Positions 10,942-19,636 of a stretch of DNA of 64,000 bases are shown piece after piece (the first letter of the stretch is position 1; each line of letters opens with the position of its first letter). Made by a program: the position numbers and the translations under genes. Source of the DNA: Alphaproteobacteria bacterium (lineage in GTDB: Bacteria > Pseudomonadota > Alphaproteobacteria > UBA828). The notes under the pieces were generated by a model, which saw nothing but the letters and a program-made list of their open reading frames with translations, searched no databases and was not told the DNA's origin. The stretch lies in NCBI GenBank assembly GCA_965214705.1, contig CBDCCI010000001.1:384001-448000 (forward strand), read 5' to 3'.

Positions 10942-12051
10942 AGGCTCAAGGAAAACGTGCCATGCCCAAAATCACCAAGCGAGTCGTCGATGTCCTGCTC
11001 CCTGGTGAACGCGAGCGCATCGTCTGGGATAGCGACATCAAGGGCTTCGGTGTCCGCGTCCACCCAACAGGACGAAAGGTCTACATCGTCAAGTACCGGC
11101 ACGAGGGACGGTCCGTCAAAGTCACAATCGGACCCCACGGACCCATCACACCGGCAGCAGCTCGGGCCAAAGCCGCCGAGATCGTGACGCTCGCAAAGAC
11201 CGGCCGCGATGTGGCAGGAAAGACGCCCCTCGTAAGAGGGAGCGCCACCATGGAGAAACTCGCCCGGCGCTTCATGGACGAGTACGCGCCTGCCCATCTG
11301 AAACCGAGTACTGCCCGGTTGTACCGGAAGATTATCGAGAACCGGATCCTGCCGCGGTTCGGCAAGCGCCGTGTCAGCGATATCGGAAAGAGTGATGTCG
11401 TCGCCCTCCATCACGACATGCGCGACGTCCCCGACCATGCCAACCGCACGCTGAGCGTTCTCTCGCGCATGCTCACCCTGGCCGAGGTCTGGGAGATGCG
11501 CCCCGAGGGCGTGAACCCATGCCGGCACGTCAAGAAATATCCCGAGCACAAGCGCGAGCGGTTTCTCTCGGACGAGGAGTACGGGCGCCTCGGTGCTGCG
11601 CTGCGTGACGCGGAACGGGAGGGCTTCGCCTCTGCGGTGGTGATCGCCGCCATTCGCCTGCTGATGCTGACCGGCTGCCGGAGCGGTGAGATCATGAGCC
11701 TGCGGTGGGAGCACGTCGATCTGGAGATGGGCGAGCTTCGGTTGCCGGATTCGAAAACCGGCTCCAAGGTGGTGCATCTGGGCGATCCGGCCATAGCGGT
11801 GCTGCGCGGCATTCTCCGCAAGGCGGACTATGGCGCGACAATCTGCATGAGATCCGCGCGGCTATCAGGATGAGATTCCTGGCGGCGACGGCGCGTTGAG
11901 GATTCCGCTGTGAGGCGGGGATTGCAAGCTCTTTTTGGATTTTGATTGTCGCGGCGCGACAGTTTCTTCGAGCAGCCAGATTGACGCGGAGAGGAGGCGG
12001 CCCGCGGGGGTCGATCTCTCGCGGGCCGCGAGTGGGGCAGTGGTGGCCGGC

Positions 12052-12894
12052 TCAGTCCTTGGTGGTGTTGTTCTCGGTCGCGACGTTTGTCGGACGCCCC
12101 GGCTTCTTCTTGCTCTTTTCGAGGGCGGCGCGGCGCCTGTAGCTCTCGACGTTCATCTCGAGGATGGTGGCATGGTGGACCAGGCGATCGACGGCGGCCA
12201 CGGCTGTGGTTTCGTCCGGGAACACCTTGCCCCACTCCCCGAAGGGCTGGTTTGCGGTGATCAGCAGCGATCGCCGCTCGTAGCGAGCGGAGATGAGCTC
12301 GAAGAGCACGCCGGTCTCGGCCTGATCCTTCCGCACATAGGCGAGGTCGTCGAGGATCAGGAGGTTGAAGCGGTCGAGCCGGGCCAGCATGGCCTCCAGG
12401 GCGAGCTCGCGCCTGGCCACCTGCATGCGCTGCACCAGATCGGTGGTTCTGGTGAACAGGACGCGATACCCGTTCTCGACCAGGGCAAGGCCGATAGCGG
12501 ACGCGAGATGGCTCTTGCCCGCGCCTGGCGGGCCGAAGATCAGGCAGTTGGCGCCCTGGGTAAGCCAGGCGTCGCCGACGGCCAGCGCGTTGACCTGGGC
12601 CTTCGAGATCATCGGCACGACGTTGAAGTCGAAGGAGGCGAGGGTTTTGCCCGGCAGCAGCTTGGCCTCCCTGAGGTGGCGTTCGATCCGCCGCCGGTCG
12701 CGTTCGGCGAGCTCGTGCTCTGTGAGCGCTGCCAGGAAGCGGGCTGCGGTCCATCCCTCCTTGTCGGCCCGCTTGGCGAAGCTCTGCCAGAGTTGGCTGA
12801 TCGTCGGCAGGCGCAACTCGGTGAGCATCAAGGAGAGCTTCATGGCGTCGACCTTGTTGGGGTCGGGCGCGGTGATGTCGTCTTTGTCGCTCAT
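12052..12894 (-). CDS. istB: IS21 helper ATPase
   Basis: [17 protein letters not shown] and [10 protein letters not shown] motifs. Confidence 0.95.
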
Positions 12895-18104: not shown

Positions 18105-19636
18105 ACTATGGCCGAATCAGATTGCTTCGACTCGTACATCTTCGATTCGGATATCCTCCTTTCTTCCGCGGCCCCGGTACGACCACCGGGGCAAGTCGAA
18201 GCCCTCCCGAGTCCCGGCACAGGGGTGTACGTGCGTCCATGGATTCCTCAGACAACGCGGAGCCCCGCAGTGCCTCACCAGAGCGGTCCTGCGGGTGTCG
18301 CCTTCGGCCGATGAGAAAACCTCGGCACTCCGGACCATAACATTTTCGATGCTCAATCATCCCGGCCACACGCGCCGCTACCGACGCTTCGACCGCACCC
18401 TCACGGATGCCGCCGCACGGCTCGCGGTGGAAGTAGTGGTTAGCCTTTCCTTCCCGTCGGACTCTCACCGACTCCCCTGCGCCAGTTAGCTCGGCGCTCC
18501 TCATCTTGTTTGTCGCGCCGCACCGGACAGTCCCTGGGTATTCCCGGGCGTCAAGCCCGGCAGGCATATGACCTATTTGCACGACTCGTGGCGTCGCATT
18601 CTCGACCGGGCCGGGATCGAGAATCTGCGCATCCACGATCTTCGGCATTCCTACGCGAGTGGCGGTCTACTGGTCGGCGAAGGATTGCCGATGATCGGAA
18701 AGCTTCTGGGTCACAGCAAAGTGCAGACCACGGCCCGCTACGCTCATCTGGCCAACGATCCTCTGAAGGCTGCTGCCAACCGAATCGCGAGCCGAATCGC
18801 CGAAGTCGCGGGTTAAGAGCGTCCCCACTGTTGGTCGGCGCATGCGTGGAACGCTGAATGGAAGGCTAAGTCCCTGATATATTCTCGTACAGGAAGTCTG
18901 ACTCCGACGTCGTAAAGCTGGATAGAACCGCTACGAGGGGTCGGCCGAGCAGCTTCCTCAAGAGCAGCGCCATTGTCGCGCAAAGCTTGGCAACCTGCGC
19001 TTTCAGTGCCTCGGTCCAAGCGTTCGACGTCTTCATGGTCTTGCAGAATCGGGCGTATTGCCTCCGCTCTCTCCCAGAACAGCCTTTCGCACTTTCGCCA
19101 ACCCCGCAGTATTCGGTTGCCAAAGACGAAGGGGGATCGTCCGACGCTCGTAGCCAGCCCGGCTCGCATGCATTCTTGGACCGAAATGGCCGAATATCAC
19201 TGACCAGGACGCGATTATCGATGTGCGAGCTCTCGAGTACCGAGTTTTCTCAACAGTCGGGCGCGTTTCCTCAGCCACCATCCGGCTTCGACCGGCCAAG
19301 CCTCGTGGTCGTCGTCGGCGGTGAGCTCTCGGGCAGCGTGAAGCGGCCAATTGGGGTCGTCGAGCAGCTCACGCGCGAGCGCCATCATATCGGCTTTACC
19401 GGCAGCAAGCGCATCCTCGCAGAAACTCGCGTCCCACAAGTAACCCACGGTCATGGTTGGAACGTCCACAGCTTCACGAATGCGAGCCGCGAAAGGCACC
19501 TGAAAGCCCTGTTCGATCGTCATGCGGCGCGGGCGTTCCTTGCCCCCGATGCCGCCGCTCGAGCAGTCGATCATGTCTACGCCTTCCGCCAGGAGTGCCC
19601 TGGCGGTTTCGATCGTATCTCTTGAGTAACTTCTCT

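Follow-up and report, generated by a model that had tools for sequence, protein, structure and literature searches.

At positions 10791–18816 of the stretch of DNA analysed here (the window, 64,000 nt; G000:C2:384001–448000) lie four nested layers: a tyrosine integrase gene, an IS21-family insertion sequence (IS) within that gene, a group II intron between two terminal repeats of the IS, and a second group II intron inside the first (Table 1). We refer to the introns here as the outer and the inner intron, and to an outer intron carrying an inner one as a twintron. The genome under study, the alphaproteobacterial assembly G000, comprises 7.9 Mb in three contigs (C1–C3), has a high GC content and is extremely rich in repeats, with a contamination estimate of 8.7%. 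Boundaries of paralogous copies were obtained by BLAST of the 7.2-kb region against the whole of G000 and subsequent reading of the flanks. The original prediction, made from the letters of the window, had described four layers that can each be removed cleanly, and empty or uninterrupted copies now fix every boundary to the base.

Table 1 Features of the nested locus, with positions in the window. Profile cut-offs were 160 bits for NF033546, 200 bits for NF038214 and 300 bits for TIGR04416; Rfam gathering scores are 49 for RF02005 and 32 for RF02001. RT, reverse transcriptase; ORF, open reading frame; EBS, exon-binding site; IBS, intron-binding site.
Feature	Positions	Strand	Evidence or remark
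Tyrosine integrase, N-terminal 346 codons	10791–11828	+	Pfam; true start maybe downstream of 10791
Target-site duplication, copy 1, GCGGAC (plus strand)	11823–11828		5/6 identical to copy 2
IS21-family element with twintron, 6694 bp (2759 bp without introns)	18522–11829	-	Three copies with same ends and different flanks
Terminal repeat R1, 23 nt, inward reading ends CATGAG	11829–11851	-	Aligns with L1, L2 and R2
Terminal repeat R2, 23 nt, inward reading ends GATGAG, no intron	11852–11874	-	Inverted repeat with L2
istB, AAA+ helper ATPase, 280 aa	12052–12894	-	IstB_IS21 216 bits; NF038214 277.3 bits
istA, transposase	12891–14429	-	NF033546 216.7 bits, residues 26–318; likely start ATG at 14354
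Terminal repeat L2, ACAGCAGCGTCAATCAGGATGAG, 23 nt, outer intron 3' exon	14542–14564	-	Directly after L1 in empty site
Outer group II intron, 3935 nt (1911 nt without inner), GAGCG...CCGCAAA	14565–18499	-	Empty site; Rfam RF02005
Outer intron domains V and VI, bulged A 7 nt before 3' splice site	14567–14637	-	Fold
Outer RT/maturase ORF, part downstream of inner intron, 480 codons and stop	14637–16080	-	TIGR04416, RVT_1
Inner group II intron, 2024 nt, GTGTG...CCCGAC	16081–18104	-	Absent from two outer copies
Inner intron domains V (GAAA loop) and VI	16085–16161	-	Fold
Inner RT/maturase ORF, 436 aa	16175–17485	-	RVT_1, GIIM, TIGR04416
Inner EBS1, ACTATGGC	17778–17785	-	7 nt in hairpin loop, eighth is first stem base
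First 10 codons of outer RT ORF (ATG..GCC ATA GT), inner intron 5' exon	18105–18134	-	Uninterrupted copy
Outer EBS1, CTCATC	18310–18315	-	Rfam terminal loop; covariation
Terminal repeat L1, TGCGGCGCGACAAACAAGATGAG, 23 nt, outer intron 5' exon and IBS1	18500–18522	-	Flank reading
Target-site duplication, copy 2, CCGGAC (plus strand)	18523–18528		One mismatch to copy 1
Integrase C-terminal catalytic region	18529–18816	+	NCBIfam Xer/integron-integrase C-terminal matches

The interrupted integrase and its IS21-family element

Forming the outermost layer is a tyrosine integrase gene in two pieces. The first ORF (10791–11873, plus strand) matches the Pfam families Arm-DNA-bind_3, Phage_int_SAM_3 (SAM-like) and Phage_integrase, the catalytic domain ending at profile position 86 of 172; the absent C-terminal catalytic part is supplied by the ORF at 18568–18816 on the same strand. 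Joining 10791–11828 to 18529–18816 in a script, with the IS and one 6-bp duplication removed, yields a 441-aa frame with a single terminal stop. Two uninterrupted integrase paralogues align across the junction (C1:2076872–2078013, 88% over 1142 nt; C1:2728575–2727356, 81% over 1225 nt). Because all the inserted layers run antisense to the integrase, splicing offers it no rescue, and the integrase is presumably dead.

The IS is present in G000 in three copies (in the window, at C2:588230–592899 and at C3:92331–99024) that are 99.98–100% identical to one another. Here the target duplication is GTCCG(G/C), with one mismatch, and at the other two sites it is perfect (CCCGCT and CACGAAC, 6 and 7 bp). 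The abutting duplications of the three copies define the right end of the element (window 11829–11831), which reads ..CCATA and thus terminates in TA, not the canonical CA; the left end is TG. The genes istA and istB are intact and overlap by 4 bp (12891–12894), and istA has no Pfam match at E ≤ 0.001. Both ends of the element carry a pair of 23-nt repeats, of which R1 and R2 adjoin; the last six letters are GATGAG in L1, L2 and R2 and CATGAG in R1.

Inserted exactly between L1 and L2 is the outer intron, placed as the original prediction had it, between two IstA-type repeats sharing a GATGAG end. In an intron-less IS21 left-end fragment of 223 bp (C1:511930–512152), TGCGGCGCGACAAACAAGATGAG is followed directly by ACAGCAGCGTCAATCAGGATGAG, and this empty junction leaves only one placement for the intron, 18499–14565. 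IS21 relatives with an empty L1|L2 junction are also found in sister-species genomes G034 (88–90% identical; L1 reads ...CAAGATGAG) and G025 (80%). The intron lies in istAB sense orientation, ~210 nt upstream of the likely istA start, and occupies one common position in all three IS copies. The copies in the window and on C3 carry the twintron and that at C2:588230–592899 is without the inner intron; no full-length intron-free IS21 is left in assembly G000.

The 223-bp fragment is part of a reciprocal nesting (locus L004, C1:511633–512152), in which a truncated inner intron, its first ~292 nt, is interrupted by the intron-free IS21 left end, the latter being itself cut off by other DNA.

The outer intron and its target

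The RNA of the outer intron matches the Rfam family RF02005 (group-II-D1D4-6) over the full model length (18465–18243, 152.1 bits). Its termini are GAGCG and AAA, compared with GUGYG and AY, and the GAGCG start is common to several subfamilies. The region 14565–14640 folds into two hairpins (-43.6 kcal/mol, z -3.5). As listed, the RT ORF spans 14637–16178 and scores 345 bits with TIGR04416 and 116 bits with RVT_1; neither a GIIM nor an endonuclease domain was found by profile searches. In an uninterrupted copy the ORF has 493 aa from MYESK, reads MYESKQSDSAIVAMKSANKG... and contains YADD; G000 holds one uninterrupted paralogous outer RT, with one amino-acid difference.

Four copies of the outer intron occur in G000, three within the full IS21 copies and one at C1:1871277–1863764. 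This fourth copy and that at C2:592876–590966 are without the inner intron, which establishes the arrangement in the window as a twintron. The fourth copy (locus L132, G000:C1:1859000–1874500, positions 4765–12278) carries, at intron position ~1655, a 5.6-kb insert with an IS66-family transposase, an IS91-type Y2 transposase and a tyrosine recombinase. Further integrase and IS110-type genes surround it, in a region with IS66, IS91-type and integrase genes.

In the RF02005 consensus alignment, EBS1 of the outer intron (CUCAUC) is located wholly inside a terminal loop, and it pairs at all six positions with GAUGAG at the end of L1, the pairing that had been proposed. By simple arithmetic, the chance that a 6-mer from a ~9-nt loop matches the 6 nt upstream is ~0.001. 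When five intron subfamilies of G000 are aligned, loop and 5' exon change in step (CUCAUC/GAUGAG, UUCGUU/AGCGGA, UCAGAUU/AGUCUGG, UGAGCA/UGCUCA and CCAG/CUGG). Across 39 distinct flank/loop pairs from the G000 subfamilies and external loci, with Watson–Crick or G–U pairs counted over six positions, 27 pair at all six, 8 at five, 2 at four and 2 at three; after 2000 permutations of the flanks the mean number of full pairings is 2.6 and the maximum 9. The fourth outer copy follows the flank ..CAAGATGGG|A, a GATGGG site that requires one G–U wobble.

The original prediction had taken the outer intron to be specialised on IS21 ends and had named the flanks of homologues as a check. With the outer RT as query against contigs of one genome per species, 79 external loci from several phyla were collected (62–76% aa identity), and the 5' ends of their introns were located with a hidden Markov model built from the G000 subfamilies. 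The sites at which these homologues are inserted are unrelated, and EBS1 co-varies with them. Their diverse flanks correspond in each lineage to the loop of that lineage; no flank ends in GATGAG, and in none of the 79 loci does the intron lie in an IS21 terminal repeat. The nearest relatives (L021–L023, 76% aa) sit inside an IS66-type transposase frame, their EBS1 UUGUUU pairing with AAACAA. Genes resembling istA or istB are present at 6 of the 79 loci, with the intron inside one only at L069, and no close copy of the outer intron was found in 43 other genomes of the same family (best match to the 5' part, 76% nt). IS21 targeting is therefore local to one intron in G000, where it applies to 3 of 4 outer copies and to all three full IS21 copies, and is not a trait of the family. 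The best explanation is a local retargeting through EBS change, which is usual in this clade.

Several other arrangements were seen among outer-like introns. At L069:5137–5607, in a Thermodesulfobacteriota assembly, the intron lies in sense orientation in an istB-like ORF, 30% identical to the IstB described here. At L071–L084 (one Alphaproteobacteria assembly), L090 and G000:C1:1860516, outer-like introns have entered another copy immediately past domain V, with the flank ..GTCCGGATCTG| and EBS1 CAGATC; this is a true ribozyme-domain target, in introns other than the nested pair. Head-to-tail tandems begin directly at another intron's 3' end, with a spacing of ~1918 nt. At L076, L082, L083 and L086 (~4720–5670), an outer-like domain I is split after ~50–115 nt by an insert of ~0.9–1 kb. 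Introns of another subfamily, in which the 5' end reads GAGCGCCAGGCTAAC, are found time and again behind the conserved flank GTAAGAGGGGCAAATC(C/T)TGG (C1:421561, 424485, 1501634, 1859845, 2635805 and 2638726; C3:1789188), a recurrence that suggests a further repeated target element.

The inner intron and its target

Inserted into domain IV of the outer intron is the inner intron, with the ends 5' GUGUG and 3' AC. Its RT contains YADD and scores 383.8 bits with TIGR04416, 138.5 bits with RVT_1 and 69.7 bits with GIIM; an endonuclease domain was not found by profile searches. The two RTs share 30% identity. The region 16081–16165 folds at -46.7 kcal/mol (z -3.6), and in it domain V has an AGC triad, a GAAA loop and a 2-nt bulge, and domain VI a bulged A 7 nt from the 3' end.

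The insertion site was originally predicted to be a conserved ribozyme domain. It proves instead to be a stretch of outer RT codons (..SDSAIV|AMK..), ~10 codons into the frame, with the V codon split GT|A. The EBS1 loop ACUAUGG pairs with CCAUAGU of the 5' exon, in agreement with the predicted pairing; the loop is that of the equivalent hairpin, matched by a D1D4-3-type model, and the eighth base, C, opens the stem. G000 holds 21 inner copies with identical 5' ends, all of which follow (C)RTAGT and precede A. Compensatory changes between IBS1 and EBS1 are found in three lineages (CCGTAAT/ATTATGG, CCGTACT/AGTACGG and GCGTGGT/ACCATGC).

Owing to its location in domain IV, the inner intron leaves the outer ribozyme core uninterrupted, so an obligatory order of splicing, in which the outer intron works only after the inner one has been removed, does not follow as had been proposed. 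The step that the inner intron blocks in cis is outer RT translation, since it separates the start codon from the body of the ORF; the uninterrupted paralogous RT is available in trans. An in-frame ATG lies two codons past the site, 13 codons after the first ATG, and no Shine–Dalgarno-like sequence precedes it in the unspliced form. Outer RT would thus be untranslatable from a twintron copy unless the inner intron splices.

Specialisation of the inner intron on other group II introns, as originally proposed, is seen in three settings. Within G000, 12 of the 21 inner 5' ends share one codon position in outer-like RT ORFs, the hosts representing five lineages, and three more precede more distant RT genes (44–46% identical to one or other of the two RTs), so that 15 of 21 copies are at the N-terminus of another intron's RT ORF. 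At one further site the exon is RT-N-terminus-like, though 1.6 kb around it hold no RT; a second has the 5' flank of one of the three sites before distant RTs; and the remainder are in DNA of no recognised identity, mostly repeated. Against the 12 occupied targets, nine outer-like copies keep an intact unoccupied one, ..CATAGT|A or ..CGTAGT|A (C2:592876, C1:1871277, C3:2105300, C3:2191903, C1:421561, C1:1859845, C1:1860516, C1:2635805 and C3:1789188); invasion of outer-like copies is incomplete.

Among the 79 external outer-like loci, eight carry an inner-type intron at the same codon. They come from four assemblies of different phyla; five are from one Vicinamibacterales assembly (73% nt identical), and at L099 an inner-type 3' end stands at the start of the locus. 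Two of the eight are ORF-less derivatives of ~840–920 nt (L068:5155–6000 and L090:5078–5993), which come from unrelated assemblies, occupy the same RT N-terminal codon and are 88–92% identical to the ends of the inner-type intron.

In the third setting, metagenome contigs searched with the inner RT, 80 inner-type loci were found at 65–93% aa identity, 72 of them with a recognisable 3' end. Another group II RT lies directly downstream on the same strand at 34 of these, none is present at 13 (flank of at least 400 nt, no RT at E ≤ 1e-4), and 25 flanks are too short, which gives 34 of 47 assessable loci. Several of the 13 still encode an RT-type N-terminus. The exons of inner-type introns encode ..K/E-S-D/A/E-x-x-I/V-V | P/A-x-K-x-x-N.., and the host RTs are of at least two kinds, outer-like (50–73% identity) and another that is 34–47% identical to the inner RT. 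The inner intron is best explained as a member of a widespread lineage whose habitual home is the N-terminal stretch of other introns' RT genes.

Order of insertion and proposed mechanism

The locus is, with high probability, the product of three successive insertions into the integrase gene, IS21 first, then the outer and then the inner intron. This order, also that of the original prediction, is given by the nesting. EBS–IBS-guided retrohoming is the established route of group II intron insertion and is the probable mechanism of both intron insertions here. For self-splicing and retromobility of the two introns, the several near-identical copies with exact boundaries are indirect evidence. 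In the sequence of events that we propose, an IS21-family element would have transposed into the integrase gene, generating a 6-bp target duplication. The endonuclease-less outer intron would then have retrohomed into the sense strand of the IS at the exact L1|L2 boundary, guided by pairing of its EBS1 loop with the GAUGAG that ends L1. Finally the inner intron, of a different class and with an RT only 30% identical, would have retrohomed into domain IV of the outer intron, directed by pairing of ACUAUGG with CCAUAGU some 10 codons into the outer RT frame.

One consequence may be damage to the IS. According to the accessible part of the report on IS5376 (PMC10122671), its IstA requires each end to carry two complete direct repeats at 23-bp spacing, and since two adjacent repeats are required it is plausible that the left end is crippled, L1 now being 3.9 kb from L2. 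Splicing of the outer intron could restore the istAB leader RNA, not the DNA end. A broader joint reading goes further: the inner lineage would be a cross-phylum, cross-habitat, obligate intron-hunting clade on RT N-termini, and the outer intron would irreversibly inactivate IS21 at the DNA level. We regard this as possible and lean slightly against it.

Several observations weigh against these readings. No Rfam domain V/VI family matches either intron at E ≤ 1, and for this reason domains V and VI were located by eye and by folding; the RF02001 (D1D4-3) match of the inner intron (17895–17709; 21.4 bits, E 0.62) is below the gathering score. Local minimum-free-energy folds of the two EBS1 hairpins are no more stable than those of shuffled sequences (z +1.1 and +0.4) and leave part of EBS1 paired. 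The expectation that both EBS1 segments lie in loops is thus borne out for the outer intron by the Rfam consensus and not by local folding; the EBS1 assignments are based on the Rfam consensus structure and covariation, the local folds not being relied on. Permutation of inner flanks (14 pairings observed, mean 9.9, maximum 14) is uninformative because target and EBS1 are conserved across the lineage, and the automated search used in it failed to locate the loop for 10 of the 35 distinct flank groups. L2 and R2 both offer GATGAG followed by A and yet are empty, so EBS1 alone does not account for the choice of site; a candidate 4-bp EBS2 (UGUU/AACA, found by eye) is complete in L1 and lacks one pair in L2 and R2, a weak indication. 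Four to six of the 21 inner copies in G000 are at sites without a recognisable RT. Three IS21 copies bearing the intron, each at its own site, could just as well reflect continued transposition of the composite, which would contradict a crippled left end. The only RNA-library contig to bridge the inner site, in X16, shows an outer intron without the inner one (113 nt on the short side, 10 differences), but it belongs to a 95–99% identical relative, is possibly an unoccupied DNA copy and gives no RNA evidence of splicing.

Contigs from four runs (X1, X5, X7 and X16, all consisting of contigs, the depth of which is not usable as copy number) were searched for joints with at least 31 nt on the short side. 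In X1 and X5 the IS21 body and the empty L1|L2 joint have a higher depth than the outer intron, a difference that is accordingly not taken as evidence. The empty L1|L2 joint in contigs of X1, X5 and X7 (22–28 nt on the short side) and the 16080>18105 joint in the DNA runs (30 nt) are below this limit, and the integrase|IS21 junctions are bridged by no contig in the four runs.

Alternative explanations

The alternative that survives best is that the IS21–intron composite remains a working transposon: the intron would have entered one IS21 copy a single time, and the composite, at a later stage carrying the inner intron too, would have transposed to the other two sites, making the intron a passenger that gains mobility from IS21 and not its killer. 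All three full IS21 copies bear the outer intron at one position, are nearly identical and have their own duplications, two of them are in the same twintron state, istA and istB are intact, and the assembly holds no full-length copy free of the intron. Set against this are the requirement of IS5376 IstA for two complete adjacent repeats at each end (PMC10122671, accessible part), L1 and L2 being 1.9–3.9 kb apart here, and an intron-free left end that did transpose, into an inner-intron copy (C1:511930). Both introns are, moreover, highly active homers, as the 21 near-identical inner copies attest, which makes three independent entries into resident IS copies unremarkable. We consider the working composite unlikely. 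Gene conversion between IS copies would be a third route to the pattern, which by itself does not separate the three.

Less probable still is that L1 is an ectopic, opportunistic site, the home of the outer intron being elsewhere, perhaps in another genome, and the GATGAG match a coincidence amplified by IS copies or recombination. The match is only 6 nt long and is repeated in the empty L2 and R2, no IS21 location is known from the 79 external loci or the 43 family genomes, and the closest relatives reside in an IS66-type transposase ORF with a different EBS1. On the other hand, 3 of 4 copies are at L1 with a perfect EBS1 match, the fourth pairing only through a wobble. Agreement between exon and loop is the norm in this clade (27 of 39 pairs), so that a perfect match marks a home site, and recurrence of the same L1 in the sister-species IS21 of G034 identifies the target as a natural, recurring sequence. 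We therefore judge an ectopic site improbable, and prefer successive insertion of the IS and the two introns.

A chimeric join of repeats in the assembly, for which the repeat content and contamination estimate of G000 might speak, can be set aside almost completely, as IS21 with the twintron is found twice (C2 and C3) with different flanks and proper duplications, the intermediate is found at a third site, and removal at every junction restores a frame or a repeat unit.

Relation to known systems

Every element of the nested-parasite idea has precedent, each type of insertion having been described in other bacteria; the comparisons made here are with the accessible parts of the cited reports. 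In Thermosynechococcus elongatus, F3 introns are located between the first two ATGs of the F1 intron ORF, in domain IV, F4 introns occupy a conserved site in the insertion element ISEL1, and intron families arise by EBS divergence followed by retrohoming (PMC2882425). Similarly, the inner intron described here lies between the first ATG and the in-frame ATG 13 codons later, and in both cases identical inner copies are found in diverged hosts. The inner and outer introns of T. elongatus are, however, close relatives of one ancestor and the inner is ORF-less, whereas here the RTs are distant and the inner intron encodes one. The inner lineage described here also occurs in many unrelated metagenomes, and the accessible part of the earlier report does not describe the IS target as a terminal repeat.

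Homing of an endonuclease-less intron to the terminal inverted repeats of an IS is known for RmInt2 of Sinorhizobium meliloti, the natural target of which is the inverted repeats of ISRm17, and insertion of RmInt1 is said to block the spread of ISRm2011-2 (PMC4615759, PMC5894124), an effect that is plausible for IS21 here. Sr.md.I1, a relative, is found in an IS66 transposase ORF, like the closest relatives of the outer intron. RmInt2 differs in using both left and right inverted repeats, whereas here the intron is confined to L1, IBS1 being present in L2 and R2 as well, and in the family of its IS, that described here being an IS21 with tandem 23-nt repeats. No exact match to the class D C-terminal motif LX3AX3PXLF[V/A]HW (PMC4615759, as given in the accessible part) was found by eye in the outer RT.

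Reviews mention several twintrons from bacteria and describe Methanosarcina introns as homing repeatedly into other introns (PMC4424553). The nested introns of Methanosarcina acetivorans, as summarised in two reports (PMC4424553, PMC2882425), are archaeal and mutually related and in this differ from those described here. The twintron of Trichodesmium erythraeum has its inner intron in domain I, and sequential splicing has been demonstrated for it (PMC4649490); like the present case it is a bacterial group II twintron, the only one there with such a demonstration. Its domain I site makes ordered splicing a structural requirement, in contrast to the domain IV ORF site here, and it interrupts a conserved host gene, not a mobile element.

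In its two direct repeats per end with 23-bp spacing and its IstA and IstB, the IS resembles IS5376, in which catalytic IstA subunits bind the outer repeat and structural subunits the inner one (PMC10122671). The present element differs in that L1 and L2 are parted by an intron and in its right end, TA instead of the canonical CA. In the literature searched, no report was found of an intron lodged between tandem repeats at the end of an IS21 element, of a cross-class, cross-phylum intron lineage living in RT N-termini, or of a genome with a comparable number of twintrons (at least 12 here).

Group II introns are usually thought to persist in bacteria inside other mobile DNA, where splicing renders them harmless. 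The locus is a base-exact case of two known strategies stacked, one being to home to an IS end and the other to home to the RT gene of a different intron, with no host function at stake. Recent IS21 structures show both IstA-binding repeats to be needed, and their separation here could serve as a natural experiment on whether a transposon can be killed by the intron it hosts. Bacterial twintrons have been described as rare and may, given that inner relatives occupy the same RT site in most assessable metagenome loci, be the normal habitat of a whole intron lineage. If the broader joint reading is true, the inner type would be a hyperparasite clade with ORF-less derivatives of its own, rather than a source of isolated twintrons, and the outer intron in IS21 would be a case in which harmlessness through splicing fails by design.

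Neighbourhood of the locus

No tRNA gene is present in the whole window. The surroundings of the locus are dense with mobile elements, among them an IS110-family transposase gene (DEDD_Tnp_IS110 and Transposase_20; 19637–21076, minus strand) ~800 bp past the integrase stop.

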